Shown piece by piece: positions 2,319 to 32,696 of a DNA stretch of 64,000 bases (position 1 is its first letter; each line of letters begins with the position of its first letter). The DNA is from a virus. Taxonomy: Duplodnaviria; Heunggongvirae; Uroviricota; Caudoviricetes. Location: the IMG/VR virus record IMGVR_UViG_3300030019_000007, one strand, 5' to 3'. Both the position numbers and the translations under genes were made by a program. The notes under the pieces were generated by a model. It made no database searches. It was given only the letters and a program-made list of their open reading frames with translations, and was not told where the DNA came from.

Positions 2319-2326
2319 TATATTTG
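2319..2326 (+). promoter_or_regulatory. Bacteroidota-type -7 promoter element (TATATTTG) for the intron endonuclease
   Basis: Matches TAnnTTTG, 21 nt upstream of ATG 2348. Confidence 0.6.
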
Positions 2327-2347
2327 TGTTTCACAAATAAATTAATA

Positions 2348-3172
2348 ATGAAAGCTACTAATGAATTAATTTTGAATTTTAATAATGGAGGTATTTATAA
2401 AATAGTAAATACTTCAAATAATAAGATCTATGTAGGATCTACAAAATCTTTTAAAAATAGATACATTCAGCATTTAAGTAAATTATCTACTAAAAAACAT
2501 TCTAATAAACATCTTTTATCTTCTTATGAACTAAATCCAGGAGAATTTAAGATGGACATTATTGAAGTTATTTCAGATTTCTCAACTCTTTTACAAAAAG
2601 AACAAGAGTATATTGTTAAATATAATTCCACCAATAATCTAATTGGATATAATTTAACCTCAACAACTACTTGTCCTTCACATTGTAAAATAGTTAAAGA
2701 AAAGATATCAGTAGCTGCTAAAAAATTAGTAGAAAAGGAAATTAAAGAGACAGGGGAATGGAGATTAACTAAATTTCAAATACAAAAAGGAGATGTTCCT
2801 TGGAATAAAGGTAAGAAAATCTTAAATACAACAAACTATCATACTAAAAAAACTAAAACAGCTGCTTTATTACAAGCTCATCTAAACACTTCAATAAGAG
2901 GAAGAGAAAAGAGTAACGTGATAGTATGTTTAGATAAAAATAAAAATGAATTATTTGTATTTAGAAGTCAGACTGATCTATTAGAATTGTTTAAATTGAC
3001 TGATTTTGGGTTTACTGTTAGTGAATCTAGATTATGTAAATCTATTAAAAATCAAAAATTGTATAAGGGGCATTATTTTATAATGCGAGCCCCTAATGAA
3101 AGTGATTTCATTAGAAAATCGGATGAACTCAGGGAAGGCTGTAATGCTAATCCTGAGCCAAGCGTGAAGTAA
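2348..3172 (+). CDS. intron-encoded GIY-YIG homing endonuclease
   Basis: GGIYKIVNT...IYVGST...RYIQH, EQEYI, YN, PWNKGKK (NUMOD-like). Start placed at ATG 2348, downstream of the promoter element. Confidence 0.88.
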   Translation: MKATNELILNFNNGGIYKIVNTSNNKIYVGSTKSFKNRYIQHLSKLSTKKHSNKHLLSSYELNPGEFKMDIIEVISDFSTLLQKEQEYIVKYNSTNNLIGYNLTSTTTCPSHCKIVKEKISVAAKKLVEKEIKETGEWRLTKFQIQKGDVPWNKGKKILNTTNYHTKKTKTAALLQAHLNTSIRGREKSNVIVCLDKNKNELFVFRSQTDLLELFKLTDFGFTVSESRLCKSIKNQKLYKGHYFIMRAPNESDFIRKSDELREGCNANPEPSVK

Positions 3173-3331: not shown

Positions 3332-3942
3332 TCGCTATTGCTTATGGAGGAAATGGTACAACTATCGCAAGAAGTTGTAATATATCTGAGGCACAAGGAG
3401 AATTTGTGTTTAATGCTTATTTTAAAGCTTTTCCAGATTTACCTGCTTATTTTAAACTAGTTTATAAAAATGCTGTAAGAGATGGTTATATTGAATTTAA
3501 TGATGTAACTCGTCATAAATATTTTATTCCTCATTTTGAAGATTTTAAGGAGGTAGAATCAGAAACAAGAGATACTGACTTCTGGAAAAATTACAGAGAA
3601 AACAAAGATGATTTAGTTTTAAAAGCTAAAGTGAAAGGGTATTTTAAACTTAAAGGAGAAATCCAGAGAAAAGCCCAGAACTATAGAATTCAAGGAACTT
3701 CCGCATCTATAAGTAAATATGCATTAATTTTATTATTCAACACTATTATTTCGAGAAAGAGGTTCAATGAGATCAAAATTGTAAATTTTATTTATGATGA
3801 AATTCTTATGGAAGTTCCTGAAGCAGAAGGTGAAGAATGGAAAGTTATTTTGGAAACAGCAATGATTAAAGGTGGTGAGCCTTTCTGCAAAACTATCCCA
3901 TTAAAAGCTGATGCAGAAATTAATACATTTTGGAAACATTAA
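3332..3942 (+). CDS. polA: DNA polymerase family A, exon 2 (spliced product about 653 aa)
   Basis: In frame after omega-G: FAIAYGG, NYRIQGTSA, motif C FIYDE. Confidence 0.92.
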
Positions 3943-4026
3943 TGACTAGAGATGAAAGACAAACTGATGTCTTGAAGACTTGGGTGAATGCAAAATGTGT
4001 AGGGACAGTTACTGCTGCAACTGGTT
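3942..4026 (+). CDS. SF2 helicase, exon 1 (missed by the ORF track)
   Basis: ATG overlaps the polA TAA; MTRDERQTDVLKTWVNAKCVGTVTAATG gives the Q-motif and the first half of Walker A. Confidence 0.88.
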
Positions 4027-4067
4027 TAAATAAAATAAAAATAACTTGTTGATCCAAATAAATTTGT

Positions 4068-4075
4068 TATCTTTG
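4068..4075 (+). promoter_or_regulatory. Bacteroidota-type -7 promoter element (TATCTTTG)
   Basis: TAnnTTTG 19 nt upstream of endonuclease ATG 4095; TTG motifs lie further upstream. Confidence 0.65.
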
Positions 4076-4094
4076 TGTATAAATAATATACAAA

Positions 4095-4766
4095 ATGATA
4101 ACTATAAATTTTGAACAATTAAATGAAATTTCAGGCATTTATATAATAAATAACCTGAAAAACAAGAAATCCTATATAGGATCTAGTAAAAATCTTTATG
4201 ATAGATTACATCAACATTTTCATAATTTAAAATACAAAAAACATCATTCTTTACATCTTCAATCCTCATACAATAAATATGGGGAAGATGCATTTAATTT
4301 TAGTATTTTAGAATTATGTGAAGTTGAAGATTTAGAAATAAAAGAACAGTATTGGATAGATTTTTTAAAACCTACCTATAATAAACGACTAGATGCTACA
4401 AGAAATACAGGACTGCCGTGTTCAAAAGAAACAAAATTAAAAATTTCAAATACTTTAAAAGAAAAATATCAAAAAGGTATTATTACTACTTATAGACAAG
4501 ATCATTTACAAATCAAAACTAATTTATATGATGCTATTACACATCAACTTATAGATTCTTTTAATAGTATTGCAGATGCTCTTAGATCTATAGGAGTTAA
4601 TCACACTAAATCAATGGATAAGATAAAAGATAAAATTGTATATAATAAATACGTTTTTGTTTTTCAAGAAAACTTAGATATTGATCAATATATAAACTCT
4701 TTAAAAGTAAAAAAGAAATATTGGAGAAATAAGTTAAAATTCCTGGACCAGGATAAACCTATTTAA
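4095..4766 (+). CDS. intron-encoded GIY-YIG homing endonuclease
   Basis: SGIYIINN...SYIGSS...RLHQH, KEQYWID, YN, CSKETKLKIS (NUMOD3-like). Confidence 0.9.
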   Translation: MITINFEQLNEISGIYIINNLKNKKSYIGSSKNLYDRLHQHFHNLKYKKHHSLHLQSSYNKYGEDAFNFSILELCEVEDLEIKEQYWIDFLKPTYNKRLDATRNTGLPCSKETKLKISNTLKEKYQKGIITTYRQDHLQIKTNLYDAITHQLIDSFNSIADALRSIGVNHTKSMDKIKDKIVYNKYVFVFQENLDIDQYINSLKVKKKYWRNKLKFLDQDKPI

Positions 4767-4973
4767 AATTGGAACCCCTTCAAATCATGGGCAATCAATT
4801 ACGAACTATGTAAAAAGTATAATGTAACATAGACGTTTAACGACTAGTAGATAAGTAACTTAACTAATTCTACCACGAAATATAGGCACAGAAATGTGAT
4901 GAGATAGTCTAAACTATGAAGATGATAAATTCATAGAATCAGAGGATAAAGAGCCTTTGAGATAATATAATTG

Positions 4974-6103
4974 TCGGGAAGACTAGAGTCGCCTTACGTG
5001 CCATAAAGTGGTTTCTTGCTAAGAATCCCACCTCAAAAGTAATGATTGTTGTGCCAACAACATATCTTAAAACCCAATGGGTTAAACTTTTAGAAGAGTG
5101 GAAGTTAGAGGGAGTTGAAATATGGGTTATCAATTCAGTCGTGAAAACAGAACATAAAATAGATTTTCTAGTATTAGATGAAATTCATTCATTTGCTAGT
5201 GATTTATTTGTTCAAGTTTTTAGAAAAGTAGACTATAAGATAATCATGGGTTTAACTGCTACAATAGAGAGACTTGATGGTAAAGAGACAATTCTTAAAA
5301 GATTTGCCCCAATATGTGCAGAAGTACCTATTTCTGAATGTATTGAAAATAAATGGTTAGCACCTTTTAGAGAGTATAAAGTTCTCTTAGATGTAGATCT
5401 CACTGAATATCAAAAATTAAATGTGGAATTTATTTCTCATTTTTCTTTCTTTGATTTTAACTTTGAGTTAGCTATGTCTATGCTAGGAAATATAATTAAT
5501 AGAAGGAAATATGCTAAACAAAATAATTTAGAATACAAAGCAGTTGATTTACATGCGTTTGGGTTTAATCGTGCAATGCAGGCTAGGAAAAAGTTTATCT
5601 TTGACCATCCTTTTAAATCACAAATAGCCCAAGAAATTTTAGCTTTTAGACCAAATGCGAAAGCTATAACTTTCTCGCAAAGTATCCCAATGGCTGAGAG
5701 TATAGGAGTTGGATGGATTATTCATTCTAAGTTAACTGCTAAAAAAAGAACTAAAGTAGAAGATGAGTTTAATGTTGCAAAAACTGGAGTCCTAAATAGT
5801 ATTCGTACTATAGAATTAGGAGCAGACATTCAGGATGTTAATCTTGCCATAATATTATGTGGTACTTCTTCTGCAATTAGTAGTTATCAAAGAAAAGGAA
5901 GGGCAATTCGACTTGAAGGAGATAAAACTTCTGAGATTTTTCACCTTGTTCTAAGGGGAACTGTCGAGGAAGAGTGGTTCCGAAAAGCCTCTAAAGGTGC
6001 AGACATTATCACAATAGATGAGGAACAACTTAAAACTGTTTTAAATCATGGAGATATTGAAGAAAAGGAACACAAAGAGAATAAATTTTTATTTAGATTT
6101 TAA
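4974..6103 (+). CDS. SF2 (DEAH-type) helicase, exon 2 (spliced product about 404 aa)
   Basis: FGKTRVAL, VVPT, VLDEIH, GLTATIER, QRKGRAIR. Confidence 0.9.
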
Positions 6104-13090: not shown

Positions 13091-13320
13091 GTATAAGAGT
13101 ATTTGAAGAATTAGAAATGGAGTTTTTTGACCCAAAAGACGAATTGCCTGCAAGTCATGAAAGAGTAATGATTATTTTAAAAGCTGGTAGCCCAGAATTT
13201 AAGTATGTTACTTTAGTTAAATATGCAACAGTTCCACCTAAATTTGTGGAATTCGAAAAATATCCTCTTAGATTTACAATAAATCAGGTTCGTTGCTGGG
13301 GTAGATTAAAAAAGAAATAA
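13087..13320 (+). CDS. tandem paralog 4
   Basis: MEFFDPKDELP...VMIIL...CWGRLK. Confidence 0.8.
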   Translation: MSIRVFEELEMEFFDPKDELPASHERVMIILKAGSPEFKYVTLVKYATVPPKFVEFEKYPLRFTINQVRCWGRLKKK

Positions 13321-14132
13321 TGGAAGATAATAAAGAAAAAGCATTACGATTTAATACGGATAAATTAAGGTATGATCTCATACCACCCTCAACTTTACAT
13401 GGCTTAGCACAAGTATTAACATACGGTGACAATAAGTATAAAAGTAAAGGAGGAGAGAGAAATTGGGAAAAAGGACTATCCTGGGAATCAGTAGGAGCTA
13501 GTTTATTTAGACACTTTGAATTATGGAGATCTGGTGAAGATTTCGATTCAGAAAGTGGATTGTTACATATAGATCATGTCTTGACTAATGCAGCATTTAT
13601 TAAAGAATACTATAGTACTCATCCTGAATTGGATAATCGCCCAAAACCATGGAGTAAATACAATAACAAAATTGCTTTAGACCTCGATGATTGTGTTTTC
13701 GATTGGAGTCCTACTTTTGCAAAAAGGTATGATATCAAAGAAAAAATGATGTGGTGGGATTTTAGTTATGCTACTCAGGACCAGTTGAAAGAACTGGAAA
13801 GTGATAAAGAATTTTGGGTTAATTTGCCTGTAAAGCATTTTCCAAAATTTGTGCCTCACTGTTATATTACGGCACGCTCTATTCCAATTGAATGGATTAA
13901 AGAGTCTTTAGAGAAGAATAATTTACCTTGTAGGCCTATTTATATAGTACCTTGGGGTCAATCAAAAAAAGAAGTACTGAAACAATCAGGTGCTAATATA
14001 TTGATTGATGATAAATTAGACAATATGATTGAAGCCGAAGAAATAGGAATCACTGCATATTTAATGGATACTCCTGCAAACCAAAAGTTTGATGTTGGAG
14101 CAAGAAGACTTTACAATTTAGATGGATTCTAA
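13320..14132 (+). CDS. DUF5664-like (dATP/dGTP diphosphohydrolase N-terminal domain) fused to a HAD-type 5'-deoxynucleotidase-like domain
   Basis: KLRYDLIPP...KY...NWEKG...RH...ESGLLHIDH, then ALDLDD...LIDDK. Confidence 0.72.
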   Translation: MEDNKEKALRFNTDKLRYDLIPPSTLHGLAQVLTYGDNKYKSKGGERNWEKGLSWESVGASLFRHFELWRSGEDFDSESGLLHIDHVLTNAAFIKEYYSTHPELDNRPKPWSKYNNKIALDLDDCVFDWSPTFAKRYDIKEKMMWWDFSYATQDQLKELESDKEFWVNLPVKHFPKFVPHCYITARSIPIEWIKESLEKNNLPCRPIYIVPWGQSKKEVLKQSGANILIDDKLDNMIEAEEIGITAYLMDTPANQKFDVGARRLYNLDGF

Positions 14133-22033: not shown

Positions 22034-22416
22034 ATTTGAATCAAGTATTTAAATATTTAGATAGTAATTTGTCTCCCGATAAAGGAGGTAAAGTACAGAT
22101 AAGTATTAACAAAGACACTAAAAAAGAGACTATTAGTATTTTTATCTTCAATAAAGAGATAAATTCATACTCTTATATCTTTGTGTTTACCAAAGAAAAC
22201 ATAGATAATATAGATACATTCAGTTCAGTCATTAAAAGTGGCTATAGCGGAATTGACTACAAACTAGGAATAGCCCTAGATGATGCTCTATATAATAGTA
22301 TAAAAGAAGCTGTAATAACTTCTGATGCTATCTATATGAAGTATTTAGAAGCCCAAATTGACGGTTTTGAAGAAGAAACTGTTCCAGTAATTGATGAGGT
22401 AGTTAATGCTGAGTAA
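22030..22416 (+). CDS. hypothetical protein
   Basis: ATGA-coupled ORF. Confidence 0.7.
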   Translation: MNLNQVFKYLDSNLSPDKGGKVQISINKDTKKETISIFIFNKEINSYSYIFVFTKENIDNIDTFSSVIKSGYSGIDYKLGIALDDALYNSIKEAVITSDAIYMKYLEAQIDGFEEETVPVIDEVVNAE

Positions 22417-24814
22417 ATTATCTGAAGAAATTTTTATTACAACTTACCAATACAAAGGTGAGGATATTCAAGGAATGTGGACTCGGGTAGCTAAAAAGCT
22501 ATCTGAGTCCGAAATTCTTTCTGAATTTACGTTTAAAGAATTTCAGTATGCATTAGAAGATTTTAAATTTATTCCTGGTGGAAGAATACTTTCTAATGCT
22601 GGAACAGATTACAAATCCACTAGTTATATTAATTGTTTTGTCTCTGGCTTTCGAGGAGAAGATCAGGATTCAATGGAAGGAATTCTAGCTGAATTAAGAA
22701 GACAAGCTTTAATATTAAAATCCGAGGGTGGTTATGGTTTTTGTGCTTCGGTTTTACGACCAAGAGGAACAATCATAAAAGGTATTGGAAGTGCAACTCC
22801 TGGAATGGTTAAGTTCTTAGAAATGTGGGATAAACAATCCCAAATCATTACTGAGGGCAGTGGCATGGAAAGTAAAGAAGGAAAAAAGAAAAACAGAAAA
22901 GGTGCTCAAATGGTAACTTCTTATGTTTGGCATCCTGATATTGAAGAGTTTATAACTGCTAAACAAACAGTAGGTAGACTAACTAAGTTCAATATGTCTG
23001 TCTTACTGACTGATAAATTTATGGAAGCCGTTGAGAGAGATCAATCTTGGAGTTTAATATTTCCTGATATTGAAGTAGATAAAGACTTTTATAAGAAAAC
23101 TTGGAATGGTGACATTGAAAAATGGATCTCTTCTGGAGGTACAGTTAGAGTTTATAAAACTTTACCTGCTCGTGAATTGTATGATCTCATTATGAAATCT
23201 ACCTATAATAGAGCTGAACCAGGCTGTTTATTTGTGGATACTATTAATAGGATGAATAATCTTACTAAGATTGAGATTATCAATGCAACTAACCCGTGTG
23301 GAGAACAACCTTTACCAATTGGTGGAGCTTGTTTACTAGGAAGTCTTAATGCTACACAATTTATTACACCTGATAGAACCGATTGGGATTACACTAGTTT
23401 AGCAAAAGTTATACCTTCTGTTGTAAGAATGTTAGATAATGTCATTGATGTTACCTATATGCCTCTTCCAGAACAGTATGAAGAAATTAAAAATAAGAGG
23501 AGAATTGGTATCGGTGTAACCGGTCTAGGCTCAGCTCTTATGATTATGCATGCTGAATATGGCGGAGAAAAGAGTAAACAATTAGTTAAAGATTATTTTG
23601 ATTTTGTTACTAATAAAATCTATCAAGCATCCGCATTATTGGCTAAAGAAAAAGGTGCATTTCCTTTATGGAATTATGAGAATTTCTTAGCTTCTAATTT
23701 CTGGAAAGGTGCCCTTAATGAAGAAACCATGACTCTTATTAAGATGTATGGTTTAAGAAACAGTCATTTAACTTCAGTACAACCAACCGGTAATACTGGA
23801 ATTTTGGCTAATAATATTTCTGGGGGATTTGAACCAGTCTTTATGACTGAATACCTTAGAACTCATGGTGTTGACTTCTTACCAGAAGGATTACCTACTC
23901 ATGATAAATGGGCTAGTACTCAAATGGAAGGAGATGTACTATTTAAAACTATTGTATTAGATGGTGTTATATATAAATGGTCTCAAACTGGAGGATATGT
24001 AAAAGAATCTTTAGTTGAGGATTATGCTGTGCATTATCTAAAATCCATTGGAGAATGGGATTCTACAGCTGATTGGTCTAAAACTACTGAACAACTGGGT
24101 GTTGATGCCCATTTAGATATCATGAAAATAGTGGCTACATATGTAGACGCTGCATTAAGCAAAACCATTAATTTACCAAACACATATCCTTATGAAGACT
24201 TCAAAAATCTTTATATTAATGCGTGGAAAACTGGTACTATTAAAGGATTAACAACTTATCGTGCAGGAACAATGTCCGCTGTTCTTAAGAAAGTTGATGA
24301 AGTAGTCACAATTACAGCTAAGAGACCAAAAGTATTACCTTGTGATATACATCACTTAAAAGCTTCTGGAGATGATTGGTTAGTAGTTGTAGGATTATTT
24401 AAAAATAAACCTTATGAAATCTTTGCTTTTAAAGAAATGGAAATCTCTTTAGGAAAGAATGTTAAGAAAGGTAACCTAGTAAAAGTAGGAAAGAATTATA
24501 ATTTAGAGACTGAATCAGTTACTATTAAAAATATTGCAAAGTATTTTGGTAGTGATGAGGAGCAGGCTTTAACAAGAATGATTTCTGTCTTAGGACTTAG
24601 ACAAAACATTGATCTTAACTTCATTGTGGATCAATTAGGTCAAGTCCCTACATCTGTAACTGCTTTTTGTAAAGCACTTACACGAACTCTTGCAAAATAT
24701 GCTGTTGAGAGTATTTTAGAGGAAACTTGCCCAGAATGTGGAAAGAAACTAATTCGTATAGAAGGATGTATTAAATGCTCCGATATTTCTTGCGGATATA
24801 ATAAATGTGGATAA
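22406..24814 (+). CDS. nrdJ: ribonucleotide reductase, class II (B12-dependent) with C-terminal TSCPD/zinc ribbon
   Basis: [48 protein letters not shown]-terminal CPECG...EGC..C; no nrdB nearby. Confidence 0.87.
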
Positions 24815-25253
24815 TATGAGAATAATAAATAATTCAAAATTTGATTTGCCCAAATACGAAACTAGATGGGCAGCTGGACTAGATATTAGAGCCAATATTG
24901 AGGAACCAATAATTCTCAATATGCTTGAGAGAGCTATTGTCCCTACAGGACTATTTCCAGAGGTTCCTAAGGGCTCTGAATTGCAGGTTAGACCTAGATC
25001 AGGTCTAGCTGCTAAACATGGTATAACAGTCTTAAATTCCCCAGGAACGATAGATGCTGATTATAGAGGAGAAATAAAAGTAATACTTGTAAATCTCTCA
25101 AAAGATCAGTTTACTATTAATCCAGGAGAACGCATAGCCCAGCTTGTTTGGGCTGAAGTAGGCTCTGTTGAATGGGAATCTGTAAAAGAGTTATCCATAA
25201 CTGACAGAGGTGCTGGAGGTTTAGGGCATACTGGAACTGATGGGCGCATTTAA
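24807..25253 (+). CDS. dut: trimeric dUTPase
   Basis: [38 protein letters not shown]. Confidence 0.95.
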
Positions 25254-25467
25254 AGGAGAAGTAGTAGGAAATAGAGGTACTGTATCAAGATTAGGTTCTA
25301 AAAAATCTGGTATGCAGTCTTATCTTAATTCCTACAACTTAGTATGTCATACTACGATGTCTTATAATATAAAAGAAGACCTCGAAGAAATACACATTAA
25401 CATTTCAGAGTATGGTTCAGGTCGTACTCTGAAAGTTTTTGATTATAAACAAGAAAGAAAAGATTAA
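25240..25467 (+). CDS. hypothetical protein, paralog of 25470..25724
   Basis: [10 protein letters not shown]...[10 protein letters not shown]. Confidence 0.7.
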
Positions 25468-25469
25468 AT

Positions 25470-25724
25470 ATGTTTCCAGATCCAATATTATATGGAACCG
25501 TTGACGGAAGTCATAATGAAATTACAAGGTCTGGTTCACGAAGATCAGGAATGACTACAACTATCCGTACGGATAAAATAGGTCCTGTAGATATAAAATG
25601 TGTTACTATTGCCACTTATGATAAAAGAAGAAATTTAATTGACTTTGTAGTAGTAGTTAGCGAAATCAAGACAGGGAAAGTACTTAAAACCCTTTCCTAT
25701 CAAAGTAATGAAAATGACGTTTGA
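25470..25724 (+). CDS. hypothetical protein, paralog of 25240..25467
   Basis: TRSGSRRSGM...SEIKTGKVLK. Confidence 0.7.
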   Translation: MFPDPILYGTVDGSHNEITRSGSRRSGMTTTIRTDKIGPVDIKCVTIATYDKRRNLIDFVVVVSEIKTGKVLKTLSYQSNENDV

Positions 25725-26650
25725 AATATGTTGACCCAAAATTTGAGTTAATTAAACTCCCAATCCTTGACAAGATAGAACTTGCCGGAAGAGTTTGTTA
25801 TCAGTCCGAAGATAAAATAAAAGAAGGAACAGATATTACTTTTATCAAAAGTATTTGTAAAAGAGGTCATACGAGTGTATTAGAACATAGTGGAATTTAT
25901 TTTACTATGGAGTTAGGAACAAGTATAAATTTAAGAAATGTTCTTCGAGAAATTGAAGATGAACATCTTATTGATTTGTTACCTTTTATTAAATTTAAAA
26001 AGCCTAGGTCTGGTAGACAAGTAATTGTTTCTACTAACTTAAGACTTTTACATACTTTATTATCACATACTGCTTATATAATTATTAGAAATTTTCTATT
26101 TGCAATTTTAGAAAAATTTCCAGAATTACATCCATTTTTACAATTTGAAAGAATCGCTTATGATGATCATATTCCTATACATATTATACGTATTGAGGAT
26201 GCTGGAGAGTTAAATATTGAGACTTTTAATATAGTATGTGACAGAGCTATTCAGAATGAACTAGTTAGACATAGAACAATGTCTTTCTCAGTTGAATCTA
26301 CACGATATTGTAATTATAGTAAGGATGCATTTAACAGTGAGATCTCTATAATTACACCAGAAACAATGAGAGAAAATTCTTTACAAGAATTAATCTATCA
26401 TGAAGGAGTACAAGCAGCTGAAGAAAACTACTTCAAATTATTAGCTGCAGGAAATACAGCACAAATCGCTAGAAAAGTATTACCTCTCGGATTAAAAACA
26501 GAGTTTTACATGAGTGGGTATGTATTCAATTGGAATAAAGTGTTCAAGCTAAGAAGTGTCAGCGGAGCACACCCAGAAGTGAGAGTTATCTCACAGGGCA
26601 TAAATCAGGCACTAAACAATAAATATGGAGACTTAGTTCCCATAGTTTAA
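25721..26650 (+). CDS. thyX: flavin-dependent thymidylate synthase
   Basis: GHTSVLEH, NELVRHRTMSFSVESTRY, ARKVLP. Confidence 0.93.
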   Translation: MKYVDPKFELIKLPILDKIELAGRVCYQSEDKIKEGTDITFIKSICKRGHTSVLEHSGIYFTMELGTSINLRNVLREIEDEHLIDLLPFIKFKKPRSGRQVIVSTNLRLLHTLLSHTAYIIIRNFLFAILEKFPELHPFLQFERIAYDDHIPIHIIRIEDAGELNIETFNIVCDRAIQNELVRHRTMSFSVESTRYCNYSKDAFNSEISIITPETMRENSLQELIYHEGVQAAEENYFKLLAAGNTAQIARKVLPLGLKTEFYMSGYVFNWNKVFKLRSVSGAHPEVRVISQGINQALNNKYGDLVPIV

Positions 26651-27147: not shown

Positions 27148-27182
27148 AATAGCGAGTTGGGAAACCAATTCGCTATTTTTTT
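27148..27182 (+). terminator. intrinsic terminator
   Basis: AATAGCGAGTTGG-GAAA-CCAATTCGCTATTTTTTT. Confidence 0.85.
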
Positions 27183-28006: not shown

Positions 28007-29155
28007 ATGAACCAGATAATAACAAGTTTCATAGACAATGACGTGTACAAGTTTACAATGTTGAATGCAGTACTAAAAACTTACCCTGGTAGACAGGTTG
28101 AGTACACCTTTCATAATAGAGATGGTAGAATAATCTCTGAAGAAGTAAGTGGAGAAATTCGTAATCAAGTAAGACTGATGTCTACTGTGAAACTAACTCA
28201 AGTAGAAGAAATTTACTTAAGAAAGAAGTTTCCAATGTTTGATGAGGAATTTTTTGAATTTATCAAAAATTATAGATTTGATCCTTTCGATGTTACTATT
28301 ACAGGGTTACATGGAGATTTTAGTGTAACTTATAAAGGTTTATGGGAAAATACTATTTTATGGGAAGTTCCATTAATGGGTATAATTTCAGAGACTTACT
28401 TTGGGATTAATCACCCAAATACCAGTTTAAGTCAATTTAAAACTAATACTGCGGAAAAAGGAAAATTAATTTTTAGTGAAAAACTAGAAGTAATTGAATT
28501 TGGCACAAGAAGAAGATTTTCTAAATTAACTCAATCGTTAGCTATAAGTATCTTAAAAATGAATAAAGCTATTGTTGGGACAAGCAACATGTACTTTGGT
28601 ATGATTCATAATCTTGATGTTAAAGGTACTACTGCTCATGAATGGACTATGGCTCATGGTGCTATGTTTGGGTATAAAGATGCTAATAATAAAGCATTAC
28701 GTGCTTGGCAAAAAGTTTATGGCACCAGTTTAAATGTGGCTTTAACTGACACGTACTCCTCAAAAGTTTTCTTTGAAGGCTTTAATAAAGAGGATGCTAT
28801 TTCAGTTAGTGGATTACGACAAGATAGTGGTAATCCTATAGAATACACTGACTTAGCTTTACAATACTATAAGGATAAAAACATTCCTAGTAGAAATAAA
28901 ACTATTATGTATAGTGATTCTTTAAATATAGAGAAAGCTATTATAATTAAAAAGCATAGACCTGATGAAAATCATAAAGTCTATGGTATAGGAACTTATT
29001 TTACCAATGATATTGAAGGGATTAAACCTTTAAATATTGTTATTAAAATGTCTTCATTTGAGGGGAAACCCACAGTTAAAATATCTGATGATCTAGGTAA
29101 AAATACCGGTGATTCTCAGGAAATACTAACATGTAAAAAAGAATTAAATTTATGA
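28007..29155 (+). CDS. pncB: nicotinate phosphoribosyltransferase
   Basis: DNDVYKFTM, EFGTRRRFS, GTTAHEW (phospho-His), LTDTY, RQDSG, GIGTYFTND, KISDD. Confidence 0.92.
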   Translation: MNQIITSFIDNDVYKFTMLNAVLKTYPGRQVEYTFHNRDGRIISEEVSGEIRNQVRLMSTVKLTQVEEIYLRKKFPMFDEEFFEFIKNYRFDPFDVTITGLHGDFSVTYKGLWENTILWEVPLMGIISETYFGINHPNTSLSQFKTNTAEKGKLIFSEKLEVIEFGTRRRFSKLTQSLAISILKMNKAIVGTSNMYFGMIHNLDVKGTTAHEWTMAHGAMFGYKDANNKALRAWQKVYGTSLNVALTDTYSSKVFFEGFNKEDAISVSGLRQDSGNPIEYTDLALQYYKDKNIPSRNKTIMYSDSLNIEKAIIIKKHRPDENHKVYGIGTYFTNDIEGIKPLNIVIKMSSFEGKPTVKISDDLGKNTGDSQEILTCKKELNL

Positions 29156-30027
29156 TAACACCGTATATTAAAACACTTGGTGATGATTGGAAAATGCACA
29201 CCAATTACGAAGATATGGTTCGTAATATCCAGAATGAACTAGAAACTTATATTGTTAAAGCAAAATTGAAATCTTTAGTTCTTGGTATTTCCGGAGGTAT
29301 TGATTCAGCATTATGTGCTGCTTTAGCTAAACCAATTTGTGATAAACTAGGAATTCCTTTAATTGGAATAAGTATTCCAATTCAAAGTAACCATAAAGAT
29401 GAAATTAATAGAGCTTTAGGTATTGGAAAGCACTTTTGTACTAAATTTCATGAAGCAGATCTTGGAGTTATATACCAAGAGGTATCTTTTAAATATAAAG
29501 GACCTTACACTTCAAATATAGTTGAAACTGAGGTGGAAAGAAAAATTCGTATGGGTAATATTAAAGCTCGTATGAGAATGATCTATTTATATAATCAAGC
29601 ACAAATGAATAAAGGTATGGTTCTCTCTACAGATAATTATACTGAGTTTTTATTAGGTTTCTGGACATTACATGGGGATGTTGGTGATTATGGTATGATC
29701 CAAAGACTTTGGAAAACTGAAGTTTATGGATTAACTGACTATATAGTAAATAAATATGTAATCTCTCATGAACCTTATAAAGCATATGCTCTACAAATGT
29801 GTATTGATGCAGTTCCTACTGATGGTTTAGGTATCACAAATAGTGATCTTGATCAATTAGGAGTAGAATCTTATGAGGAAGTAGATGCAATCTTACAAAG
29901 ATTATGTCTAATTTCATCTGAAACTGATGTAATAGCTAATGATCCAGTAACAAAAAGGCATATTCAATCAGAATTTAAAAGGAATAATCCTTTTAACATA
30001 GAACGTAAAACAATTTTACAATCGTGA
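29152..30027 (+). CDS. nadE: NH3-dependent NAD+ synthetase (no glutaminase domain)
   Basis: VLGISGGIDSA, GNIKARMRM, STDNYTE..LGFWTLHGD, LWKTEVY, PTDGL. Confidence 0.93.
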   Translation: MITPYIKTLGDDWKMHTNYEDMVRNIQNELETYIVKAKLKSLVLGISGGIDSALCAALAKPICDKLGIPLIGISIPIQSNHKDEINRALGIGKHFCTKFHEADLGVIYQEVSFKYKGPYTSNIVETEVERKIRMGNIKARMRMIYLYNQAQMNKGMVLSTDNYTEFLLGFWTLHGDVGDYGMIQRLWKTEVYGLTDYIVNKYVISHEPYKAYALQMCIDAVPTDGLGITNSDLDQLGVESYEEVDAILQRLCLISSETDVIANDPVTKRHIQSEFKRNNPFNIERKTILQS

Positions 30028-31190
30028 CAAAAATATTATACAATGTTGACAGTAAAGGAAAGACACGTTATGTGACTTTCCATACTGCAACAAGATTATT
30101 AGGAGGATATGAGATTAAAAGAGACTCCGGATTAGTTGGAGGAACGAATGTATCCCAACCTACTATTACCATTGATAAAGGAAAAGCAAAAAGAACTCTT
30201 GAACAACAAGTTCAATTAGAATTTGATTCTTTAGTAAATAAAGCTAGAGATAAAGGGTATAAAGATACTGTTGAGGAATTAACTACTTATAAGACAGATG
30301 CTAATGGTAATAAAAAACCACAATTAGCTAAGGATCCTAGAGGTAAATTACCTCATACTATTACTGAGGAAGAAGCTAGAGAAGTGATTCTCTCAAGAAT
30401 TCAGAAGATTATTAAGGGCAAGAAAGGATATATATCTAAAAAGTTAGATGGTGTTCGTATGCTTCAAGGTATGAAATCGAATAAAATTAATTCTACTAGT
30501 CGTAGTGGAAAAAGTTATAATCCAATAACTAAAGAAATTGTTAAAGATCCCTGTATCCGAGAATTTTTTGATAAATATCCTAACTATCAATTAGATGGTG
30601 AACTATATGTACATGGTGTACTTTTAGAAGAACTCTCTGGTGATGCACGTAAACATGAGTGGATTGAATCTAGACATGCAAAATTACAATATTGGATATT
30701 TGATATTGTAGCTGAAGGACTTACTTTTGAAGAAAGACTAGAAATTCTTAAAACTATCCAACCTAAAACAGAAAAAGTAGTAATAGTTGAGCATGTTGCT
30801 GTAACAGACAACATTGATATTATTATGGCCTATTATGATAAGTGGATTGAAGAGGGTTATGAAGGAGGAATCTGGAGAGAAGCCTCAAGTCTTTACAAAG
30901 AAGGTAAAGATAATAGAATGATTAAAATCAAACTAATGCAAGATGACGAGTTTGAAATCACAGGTATTGCAGAAGGACTACGTCCTGAAGATATGGTATT
31001 TGAGATGAAAACTGCTGATGGTGTTGCTTTTGAGGCAAAACCGAAAGGTACTGTAGAACAAAGACTATGGTATCTTGCTAATATTAAAGACTTAATTGGA
31101 AAATTTGGAACCGTTAAGTTCTTTCATTATTCTGTTAGTGGAGCCCCTAATCTTCCATCATTTAAATCCTTAAGAGAAGATGGTGAGTAA
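30024..31190 (+). CDS. ATP-dependent DNA ligase with a WGR-like N-terminus
   Basis: KKLDGVR, LDGELY, FDI, EGGIWR, MIKIK, OB-fold tail. Confidence 0.88.
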   Translation: MTKILYNVDSKGKTRYVTFHTATRLLGGYEIKRDSGLVGGTNVSQPTITIDKGKAKRTLEQQVQLEFDSLVNKARDKGYKDTVEELTTYKTDANGNKKPQLAKDPRGKLPHTITEEEAREVILSRIQKIIKGKKGYISKKLDGVRMLQGMKSNKINSTSRSGKSYNPITKEIVKDPCIREFFDKYPNYQLDGELYVHGVLLEELSGDARKHEWIESRHAKLQYWIFDIVAEGLTFEERLEILKTIQPKTEKVVIVEHVAVTDNIDIIMAYYDKWIEEGYEGGIWREASSLYKEGKDNRMIKIKLMQDDEFEITGIAEGLRPEDMVFEMKTADGVAFEAKPKGTVEQRLWYLANIKDLIGKFGTVKFFHYSVSGAPNLPSFKSLREDGE

Positions 31191-32430
31191 ACTTCTAAAA
31201 AATCAATTGCTTTTACCTTCTGGTATTTTAATAACATTAAATTATCAGCAAGTAGAAGCAATTGAAAAAATTAGAGAATGGCTAAAATCTACCGAATCAA
31301 TGTTCGTGTTAGAAGGTTTCGCTGGAACAGGTAAAAGTTGTTCTATAAAGAAATTGCTAGACTCTACAAAACTAGATGTTACAGTATCAGCTCCAACTCA
31401 TAAAGCACTAAAAGTTATCTCAAGATTTACTGGGAAAACAGGAAGGACCTTACAAGCTCTTCTAGGATTTTCTCCTAATGTAAATGTGGATAATTTTGAT
31501 ATAAATAATATACAATTTGATCCATTAGGTAAGGAAGAAATTTCCTTATATGACCTTATCATAATAGATGAGGCTTCTATGATCAATGCAGATCTTTTTG
31601 CTTATTTAGAAAGAGTAACAAAAAGAACAAAGGTTAAAATAATATTCTTAGGAGACAAACGACAGATTCCACCAGTAGGTGAGAAACTTAGTCCTGTCTT
31701 CTCTGCTAAAATATCACGGTTTACCCTAACTAAGATTGAGAGGCAGAATGATGGAAATCCATTACTGCTTCTCAATGATAAACTAAGGGATTCTGTAGAA
31801 ACTCTTGAAGATATCGAGATTGAAACTATTTTAAATTATAAAGATGAAGGTACTGAAGCACTTAGCTTTGAGGAATTTAAAAAAAAGTTAAACTTTACTT
31901 TCAATTCTGAAGAATACCTAAAAGATCCTCTTTATGCTAAAATGTTAACGTGGACAAATGTCTCTGTTAAACAATGGAATAGTGCTATAAGACAAATGAG
32001 ATTCCCAGGTATAATTGACCCATTAGTTGTGGGTGATGTACTTATGAGTTATGCTAATATTGGTAGAACTCCTCTTGGAGAGGCAATGATTAAAAATTCA
32101 GAAGATTATTTAGTTACTTATGTAGAATCTTTTACTAGTAACTTTGGTGTTCCTGGATATATTATTGGTCTTAAAGAAATTGATAGTATTAATGTATTTC
32201 AAATTTTTGTGGTAGAACCTACTCTACAAGGAGAATGGTTATATTTAAAAACACACGATAAAATTTTACAAAAAGCTTTATCTTACCAACCGGGTAAGTT
32301 AAGAAGTAAAGTTTTTTCTCAAGAATATTTTCCCTTTAAAGAATCACACACCTTAATGCGTGACTGCCAAACTGGTAGTAAAAAGACAAAGGATATAGAT
32401 TATGGTTATGCTGTATCTATTCATAAGAGT
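31180..32430 (+). CDS. SF1B Dda/RecD-like helicase, exon 1
   Basis: GFAGTGKS, SAPTHKA, IIDEASM, LGDKRQIPPV, LTKIERQ; ends YAVSIHKS. Confidence 0.9.
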
Positions 32431-32696
32431 TAGGTAATATTGGCTCTTAAAAAACTCATTAAATTGCGGGGATCTCCTAAAGTTTATTTAACCAAACTAT
32501 AATAGAAATATTATAGTGGCTTTCAGTAATGATGGAAGGTATGGTAAAATCAAATAAAATTGGACAATCCGCAGCCAAGTCTCTTTTAGTCAGAGAGAAA
32601 GGTTCAGAGACTATCTCGAAAGAGAGTACATTTATTATATTTTATAATATTTGGAAAAAGTGAGGTATTTTATACTGACTTATGACTTATTTTTTG

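Follow-up and report, generated by a model that had tools for sequence, protein, structure and literature searches.

The stretch of DNA analysed here comprises 64,000 nucleotides of the IMG/VR virus record IMGVR_UViG_3300030019_000007 (Caudoviricetes) and is referred to below, at its full length, as the window. At positions 28,007 to 30,027 it carries two overlapping, intact genes for the synthesis of nicotinamide adenine dinucleotide (NAD+). These are pncB, encoding a nicotinate phosphoribosyltransferase, and nadE, encoding an NAD synthetase; they share an ATGA at 29152-29155. Two further candidate genes of the same pathway, pncA for a probable nicotinamidase and a nadM-type gene for a probable adenylyltransferase, were identified on the same genome outside the window. 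The corrected gene list thus contains four phage genes (pncA, pncB, nadM, nadE), not two. An earlier interpretation of the window, made without database searches and called the sequence-only reading below, had described the pair as overlapping and intact, the phosphoribosyltransferase as nicotinate-type, NadE as ammonia-type, and the neighbouring ligase as ATP-type, all of which was borne out. The coordinates of the features are summarized in Table 1.

PncB matches the Pfam families NAPRTase_N (PF17767, E 2e-27) and NAPRTase (PF04095, E 9e-46) and scores above the curated NCBIfam cut-offs of TIGR01514 (340.8 vs 269.55 bits) and NF003704 (382.5 vs 379 bits). The motif DNDVYKFTM is present at the N-terminus. 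Among solved structures PncB is closest to the Porphyromonas gingivalis enzyme 2IM5 (E 3e-70), with which it can be aligned over its whole length. His211, within GTTAHEW, is aligned to GTHPHEW and GTQAHEW of the solved nicotinate phosphoribosyltransferases 2IM5 and 3OS4, and is presumably the phosphorylated histidine of the ATP-coupled enzymes. Family membership points to nicotinate rather than nicotinamide as the substrate. PncB was found in just 14 of 50,697 GenBank phage records, mostly those of huge phages; a PHROGs search gave no match for it, and a megablast of the pncB-nadE locus against 50,697 phage records gave none either. NadE has a single NAD_synthase domain (PF02540, E 2e-37) spanning residues 23-278, with the SGGIDS P-loop (ATP pyrophosphatase loop) at residues 47-52. 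It lies above the cut-off of TIGR00552 (125.5 vs 63.65 bits) and below that of the full-length equivalog NF010587 (127.4 vs 255 bits). A nitrilase-type glutaminase domain was not found in NadE; a separate glutaminase subunit was not searched for. The best solved match, at 65 bits, is 3FIU, which we take to be the Francisella enzyme; 3P52, 2E18 and 1XNG are nearly tied with it at 63.5-59 bits.

The pair occupies a slot that is shared among related uncultured phages and consists of dUTPase/ThyX, small open reading frames (ORFs), pncB overlapping nadE, the ligase, and a giant PD-(D/E)XK ORF on the opposite strand. The slot is kept in five sub-lineages. PncB identity to the window is 65% in contigs L001 and L002, 54% in L050 and 51% in L027, and contig L051 also has the slot. 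The ligase directly follows nadE in L001, L002, L027 and L050, and the upstream neighbours listed in Table 1 (22406..26650) recur in L027, L050 and L051. This recurrence in the same order across at least five related phage lineages is far beyond chance. In the PncB tree the window falls into a phage clade of 22 protein clusters (SH-aLRT 98), and in the NadE tree into a phage clade of 18 clusters (SH-aLRT 97); the two clades have matching sub-clades, and both stand beside Bacteroidota sequences. FGTRRR, GT.AHEW (with His211) and RQDSG are unchanged in 22/22 phage-clade PncB proteins, as are SGGIDS, STDNxTE and GFWTLHGD in 17 members of the NadE clade. Both genes are under purifying selection. 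Pairwise ratios of nonsynonymous to synonymous substitution (dN/dS) are 0.12-0.32 for pncB and 0.13-0.26 for nadE, the same range as for the ligase and the ribonucleotide reductase (RNR) of these phages, with synonymous sites near saturation. Because of the shared slot, the matching clades, the low dN/dS and the invariant motifs, the pair is read as an old, vertically inherited and selected feature of the phage lineage. Bacterial contamination, mis-assembly, or decaying passengers without function could likewise account for genes that are clearly of bacterial (Bacteroidota) origin in such a record. This explanation is extremely improbable, however, given that independent assemblies of several samples, with contigs of 148-171 kb, yielded the identical sequence, that the frames are intact with invariant catalytic motifs and dN/dS well below 1, and that the position is conserved within the phage replication module, with a crAss muzzle protein encoded downstream.

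The nearest cellular PncB sequences are from Bacteroidales (42-47% identity), and for NadE they are single-domain proteins from Bacteroidales and Marinilabiliales (55-58% identity). A Bacteroidota metagenome contig, L028, carries an operon of a pncA-like gene, pncB, nadE, an NrtR-type Nudix regulator, a TonB-dependent receptor, pnuC and nadR. Since the phage pair keeps the order and adjacency of this operon, block capture is the simplest history: pncB-nadE was probably captured en bloc from a host pncA-pncB-nadE-nrtR operon, without the regulator, so that the phage copy would escape the host NrtR repressor. The host is probably a Bacteroidota bacterium, because the pair can be traced to a Bacteroidota salvage operon.

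The genes outside the window were located by walking outward along contigs of the same phage, 148-171 kb in length, with the help of exact-protein look-ups; 112 kb was examined in total. The chain L043-L039-L031-L029-window overlaps at 100, 100, 100 and 99.98% nucleotide identity. The longest contig bearing each of PncB, NadE and the NadM-like protein has 170,868 bases in all three cases, and the genome is roughly 171 kb, below the 200-kb jumbo limit. All four enzymes are encoded on the early/replication arm of this one genome. PncA is 50% identical (E 7e-92) to the product of the first gene of the L028 operon. Its best solved relatives are nicotinamidases, namely yeast Pnc1 (2H0R) and the enzymes of Leishmania (3R2J), M. 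tuberculosis (PncA, 3PL1) and Pyrococcus (1ILW). Residues D10, D52, H54, H119, K153 and C204 align with positions of yeast Pnc1 (2H0R) that we take to be the catalytic triad (Asp-Lys-Cys) and the metal ligands (Asp-His-His). A 115.6-kb relative, G001, has an 82% identical pncA at the same relative position, with a dN/dS of 0.08.

The NadM-like protein has a strong match to PF01467 and passes the general model TIGR00125. Its best solved relatives are the archaeal nicotinamide mononucleotide (NMN) adenylyltransferases 1EJ2/1HYB and 1F9A (E 1e-10). In the motifs ARMQPIHNGH and SATKVR, residues R10, H15, H18 and R153 align with R11, H16, H19 and R136 of the Methanobacterium NMN adenylyltransferase, and the entry titles of 1M8F, 1M8G, 1M8J and 1M8K give R11, H19 and R136 as residues mutated in that enzyme. 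An AlphaFold model built with 42 homologues (pLDDT 89.3) has archaeal NMN adenylyltransferases and Synechocystis NadM as its top fold matches (TM 0.64-0.72). A search of IMG/VR for near relatives of the gene returned distant partial matches only.

In the proposed pathway PncA would convert nicotinamide to nicotinate and NH3 (step 1), and PncB would form nicotinate mononucleotide (NaMN) from nicotinate, phosphoribosyl pyrophosphate (PRPP) and ATP (step 2). The NadM-type enzyme would then convert NaMN and ATP to nicotinate adenine dinucleotide (NaAD; step 3), and NadE would make NAD+ from NaAD, ATP and NH3 (step 4). The four phage enzymes probably form an enzymatic pathway of this kind, and there is good reason to believe that the phage encodes the whole route from nicotinamide to NAD+, with pncB supplying step 2 and nadE step 4. 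Which substrates are used, and whether step 3 precedes step 4, we infer; NAD+ would be the end product in either case. A phage-borne deamidated route to NAD+ had already been proposed in the sequence-only reading. Both the idea and the gene identities behind it hold, and the search of the genome for nadD, nadM and pncA that had been suggested there led to the NadM-type gene and PncA. For the adenylyl step, three sources had been offered: host NadD, a gene outside the window, or a bypass in which NadE amidates NaMN as the Francisella enzyme does. It is the second of these that was found, as the NadM-type gene upstream of pncB. With phage PncA and a NadM-type gene at hand, host NadD would not be needed, and the bypass is impossible because NMN would still have to be adenylylated, as it is by NadM in Francisella (PMC3376133).

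A two-gene booster that relies on host NadD and host PncA would agree with the absence of PF01467 (NadD/NMN adenylyltransferase) from all sizeable ORFs of the 64-kb window and from the 115.6-kb relative G001. This arrangement is nevertheless very improbable, as both a NadM-type adenylyltransferase and PncA are encoded on the same genome outside the window. The missing match in G001, taken as a sign that the phages have no adenylyltransferase, was rejected as a truncation effect: G001 ends ~4 kb past its own pncA and ~26 kb short of the nadM site. Judging such modules from one window or from a truncated contig yields false calls of a missing step. A Francisella-like order of the last two steps, with NadE acting as an NMN synthetase (NaMN to NMN) and the NadM-type enzyme converting NMN to NAD+, is improbable as well. 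In its favour, the phage has NadM and not NadD, a replacement that in Francisella accompanies a NaMN-adapted NadE (PMC3376133), and among solved structures the phage NadE matches 3FIU best, by a small margin. Yet 3FIU is barely ahead of 3P52, 2E18 and 1XNG, NaMN is accepted as a substrate by archaeal NadM, and Acinetobacter pairs NadM with a conventional NAD synthetase. An ordinary NAD synthetase is also the likelier identity because the phage NadE shares 55-58% identity with Bacteroidota NadE encoded in pncA-pncB-nadE operons.

The benefit of the route from nicotinamide would be an NAD+ pool that is held up during infection, including its rebuilding from the nicotinamide freed by TIR/SIR2-type NAD-cleaving (NADase) defences. 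NAD+ depletion is among the commonest bacterial anti-phage strategies, and NADase effectors release nicotinamide and ADP-ribose (PMC13728456). Since the route starts at nicotinamide, a product of the NADases, the idea of an anti-defence function fits better. A nicotinamidase start and freedom from host NrtR are plausibly what a rebuild system would be expected to show, and the genome arm of pncB-nadE also bears other likely counter-defence genes (an RNA-repair set, see below). Counter-defence may be the main benefit, and is given a little less than an even chance. Several observations weigh against the pathway or against this use of it. PncA falls just under the Pfam isochorismatase cut-off (25.6 vs 27 bits), and its sole NCBIfam match, the nicotinamidase/pyrazinamidase model NF008623, is far below cut-off (38.9 vs 174 bits), so the assignment rests on best matches and conserved residues. 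The best NCBIfam matches of the NadM-like protein are NMN adenylyltransferase models, likewise under their cut-offs (NF002243, 61.9 vs 127 bits; TIGR01527, 53 vs 181 bits), and its assignment therefore rests on best matches, conserved residues and fold; in fold, phosphopantetheine adenylyltransferases are almost as good, at lower identity. The four genes are scattered over 67 kb and do not form one operon, and co-regulation is not implied. Because pncB-nadE lies amid genes of deoxynucleotide synthesis and replication, a plain metabolic role fits equally. Finally, the route costs PRPP and three ATP over four steps, and may not be fast enough to outpace an active NADase.

The genes could accordingly be ordinary auxiliary metabolic genes, which enlarge the NAD(P)(H) pool for phage nucleotide synthesis after host transcription has been shut off, with no specific link to NADase defences. 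This is a serious possibility, held somewhat short of an even chance. The pair directly follows RNR, dUTPase and ThyX, is strung together with ligase and helicase, and has kept this position in five sub-lineages. ThyX consumes NAD(P)H, and RNR requires reducing power. NARP2, one of the known NAD+ reconstitution pathways compared below, likewise raises NAD+ constitutively (PMC13728456). The metabolic explanation is at odds with the presence of a phage PncA, whose sole use is the recycling of nicotinamide from NAD+ cleavage, and with the lack of an NAD kinase in the 112 kb examined. Genes of the counter-defence type, including the RNA-repair set, abound on the same genome arm. A 170-aa Nudix protein is also encoded near pncA; its nearest likeness is the ADP-ribose pyrophosphatase domain of NadM-Nudix enzymes, and it might conceivably return ADP-ribose to AMP and ribose 5-phosphate. 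The metabolic and the counter-defence explanations are not mutually exclusive.

In the phage genome, pncA heads a cassette in which genes for a VWA, a PP2C and a Ser/Thr kinase protein form a TerY-P-like triad (for comparison with the TerY-P type, see PMC11090510). In the 469-kb phage L003, genes in this order come after pncB, and the relative G001 (L041) keeps the order too. The cassette may regulate the nicotinamidase. No paper on a link between a nicotinamidase gene and a TerY-P-like triad was found in the literature. At its most far-reaching, the scattered PncA-PncB-NadM-NadE set would be a fourth, deamidated NAD+ reconstitution pathway that protects an entire lineage of crAss-like phages of Bacteroidota from TIR/SIR2-type NAD+ depletion, with a first step gated by phosphorylation through the TerY-P-like triad and switched on only when NAD+ is destroyed. 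As a whole this is speculative and rather unlikely. Between the cassette and the window, contig L029 encodes a ferritin-like protein of 177 aa (L029:3682-4215, ~6.2 kb before window base 1) and a 189-aa protein with a PF01693 (Cauli_VI) domain (L029:5316-5885, ~4.6 kb before window base 1).

Table 1. Positions of the NAD+ genes and of neighbouring features; plain numbers are window positions, other positions are given on the named contig.
Feature	Position	Strand	Remarks
NadM-like NMN/NaMN adenylyltransferase, 187 aa	L043:1401-1964		~37.6 kb before window base 1; 65.6 kb upstream of pncB
pncA, probable nicotinamidase, 261 aa	L031:8503-9288		~11.2 to 10.4 kb before window base 1; 39 kb upstream of pncB
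Cassette headed by pncA	L031:8503-12647		~11.2 to 7.1 kb before window base 1; PncA 261 aa, VWA 233 aa, PP2C 236 aa, 89-aa ORF, Ser/Thr kinase 553 aa
Family A DNA polymerase, two pieces	915-2345 and 3406-3942		split by GIY-YIG endonuclease ORF 2324-3172
RNR large subunit, dUTPase, two small ORFs, ThyX	22406..26650	+	Pfam Ribonuc_red_lgC, dUTPase (PHROG 135), Thy1
Terminator-like hairpin	27148..27177	+	13 pairs then TTTTT; consensus match only; precedes WPxRH-WPxRH-pncB-nadE-ligase-helicase
WPxRH ... LYNNRFIEY small protein, 164 aa	27194..27688	+	first of unit; paralogue of next gene
Second WPxRH paralogue, 106 aa	27685..28005	+	ends 1 nt short of pncB start codon
pncB, nicotinate phosphoribosyltransferase, 382 aa	28007..29155	+	intact; TIGR01514, NF003704, PF17767, PF04095
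nadE, single-domain (ammonia-type) NAD synthetase, 291 aa	29152..30027	+	intact; PF02540, TIGR00552
ATP-dependent DNA ligase, 388 aa	30024..31190	+	PF01068, E 1e-18; coupled to nadE stop codon (GTGA)
RecD/Pif1-like superfamily 1 helicase	31180..32433	+	last of string; AAA_30, AAA_19, PIF1

The genes after the terminator-like hairpin abut or overlap each other as far as 32433, and the RNR-dUTPase-ThyX block sits directly upstream of this unit. A sigma-70 promoter scan gave a site count equal to the shuffle expectation and is hence uninformative. The WPxRH proteins at the head of the unit have an N-terminus rich in Ser, Thr and Asn and a conserved core, GWPxRH ... HEIE ... LYNNRFIEY. A single copy lies directly upstream of pncB in related phages (L001:4512-4949, L002:9489-10004, L027:9218-9625), and the gene is duplicated in the phage of the window. 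The proteins have no Pfam or PHROG match, and the Atlas model of the 106-aa copy is of low confidence (pLDDT 0.48), with no usable look-alike. They had been tried as a hidden nicotinamidase or adenylyltransferase and were rejected on the missing Pfam match, the poor model and His/Cys residues of the window copies that are not conserved in relatives. For the last of these reasons a metal enzyme is unlikely. The ligase has no match to any NAD-type ligase family. The window and L006 (31180-33455 vs L006:13201-15449) are otherwise identical assemblies with strain differences in the helicase (417 vs 408 aa) and the next ORF (257 vs 242 aa); weak similarity to AbiH and to homing endonucleases is seen in the 257-aa version of that ORF.

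The window has a G+C content of ~31%. Its plus-strand arm, from 1 to 34.7 kb, is devoted to replication and nucleotide metabolism, and its minus strand carries a block of giant ORFs of 1480, 1453, 3207 and 2789 aa, for which a PHROGs search found no match save an exonuclease-type domain in the 1480-aa protein. A tblastn search of the 602-aa protein against phages gave no match. Directly past the window, downstream, a 1783-aa protein is matched by PF25731 (crAss_MUZ). The phage is called crAss-like on the basis of the crAss muzzle protein and the giant cargo-gene block. In the stretch 3942-6103, after the split polymerase gene, a second GIY-YIG ORF (4095-4766) precedes a superfamily 2 helicase. 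A 270-aa protein at 13320-14132 has a PF18909 domain (dATP/dGTP diphosphohydrolase N-terminal domain, E 3e-25). Enzymes of this type are linked to phage genomes with modified bases (2-aminoadenine).

On the upstream arm, an RNA-repair-type set is spread over L043:4597-10732 and L039:8708-11066. It comprises an ATP RNA ligase (453 aa), a PNK/PSTK-like kinase (136 aa), a MutT-like Nudix protein (125 aa), a CCA-adding/poly(A) polymerase-like protein (243 aa), a calcineurin-like phosphoesterase (228 aa) and a cREC cyclic-phosphate-processing domain (130 aa), and probably counters tRNA-cutting defences. An 88-aa PQ-loop/MtN3 (SemiSWEET-type) membrane protein, not PnuC by Pfam, is encoded at L039:6476-6742 beside a YqeY-domain protein.

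Phages have three proven pathways for rebuilding NAD+, none of which runs via nicotinate. Osterman et al. 2024 demonstrated NARP1 (Adps + Namat) and NARP2 (Nampt + Nmnat), and NARP3 (PnuC + NadR) was published in August 2026 (Sci Adv, PMC13464706). The place of third such pathway, which the sequence-only reading had given to pncB-nadE, is therefore taken; if the counter-defence function is true, the four-enzyme route would be the fourth. It would also be the first NAD+ rebuild route tied to crAss-like Bacteroidota phages, a dominant group with few tractable counter-defence examples. The sequence-only reading noted that neither NARP1 nor NARP2 uses PncB/NadE; to call the route new on that ground goes too far, as phage pncB-nadD-nadE clusters had already been described in silico. 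Iyer et al. 2022, surveying viral NAD systems, do not mention PncB or NadE. In gut jumbo phages, clusters of pncB, nadD and nadE were described from sequence as a phage Preiss-Handler pathway (Microbiome 2024, PMC11662467), a gut-virome study lists viral pncA, pncB, nadD and nadE (PMC11780533), and a phage genome paper of 2026 suggests that such genes may counter NAD+ depletion (PMC13384950). A limited literature search found no paper tying these NAD genes to crAss-like phages.

NARP2 (Nampt/NadV + Nmnat/NatV, as in Vibrio phage KVP40) likewise makes NAD+ from nicotinamide and PRPP, uses a NadM-family adenylyltransferase, and defeats NADase defences. It differs in being amidated and in having two steps (nicotinamide to NMN to NAD+), whereas the route here would take four steps via nicotinate. 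The NARP2 Nampt (PF18127 + PF04095) was not found in the phage; the phosphoribosyltransferase is nicotinate-type, and only the adenylyltransferase half of NARP2 is present. NARP1 and NARP3 share the same proposed end, the restoration of NAD+ during infection, and differ from the phage here in chemistry and substrates. No Pfam family of the Prs-like Adps or of Namat occurs among the ORFs of the window or the called genes of 39 kb upstream and 10 kb downstream, and neither PnuC (PF04973) nor NadR was found in the 112 kb.

A close likeness, with otherwise equivalent enzyme content, is to the 'NAD-jumbo phages', whose clusters (e.g. pncB-nadD-nadE of Kuafu_71) also combine PncB, NadE and an adenylyltransferase for a predicted synthesis of NAD+ from nicotinate. 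In contrast to these, the genome here is ~171 kb (< 200 kb) with a crAss-like virion module, the adenylyltransferase is NadM-type and not NadD, PncA is present, so that the route would start at nicotinamide, and the genes extend over 67 kb and are not in one cluster. The Bacteroidota operon of L028 shares the order and adjacency of pncB-nadE, and its NadE and PncB fall into sister groups of the phage clades. Unlike this operon, the phage is without the NrtR regulator, PnuC and NadR, has its pncA 39 kb off beside the VWA-PP2C-kinase triad, and has added its own NadM. MT835470.1, a 117-kb human-gut phage record (L021/L022/L024/L034, 22.9-27.8 kb), is of similar size and carries the same four enzyme families, packed into 5 kb as pncA, pncB, nadE, a gap, and a PF01467 adenylyltransferase of 195 aa. 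With just 33-36% identity to those of the window, its PncB and NadE lie outside the window clades and were therefore acquired separately. Sinorhizobium phage Phosso carries nadE, pncB, a MutT-like Nudix gene and an NMN adenylyltransferase gene together (three of the four enzymes). In Francisella tularensis, too, NadM rather than NadD accompanies a NadE homologue; the phage NadE groups instead with Bacteroidota NAD synthetases. The phage NAD set is thus another example of an already described type and not a new type. Particular to it are the crAss-like lineage with a genome under the jumbo limit, NadM instead of NadD, the dispersed genes, the traceable capture from Bacteroidota, and a pncA that heads a TerY-P-type cassette.

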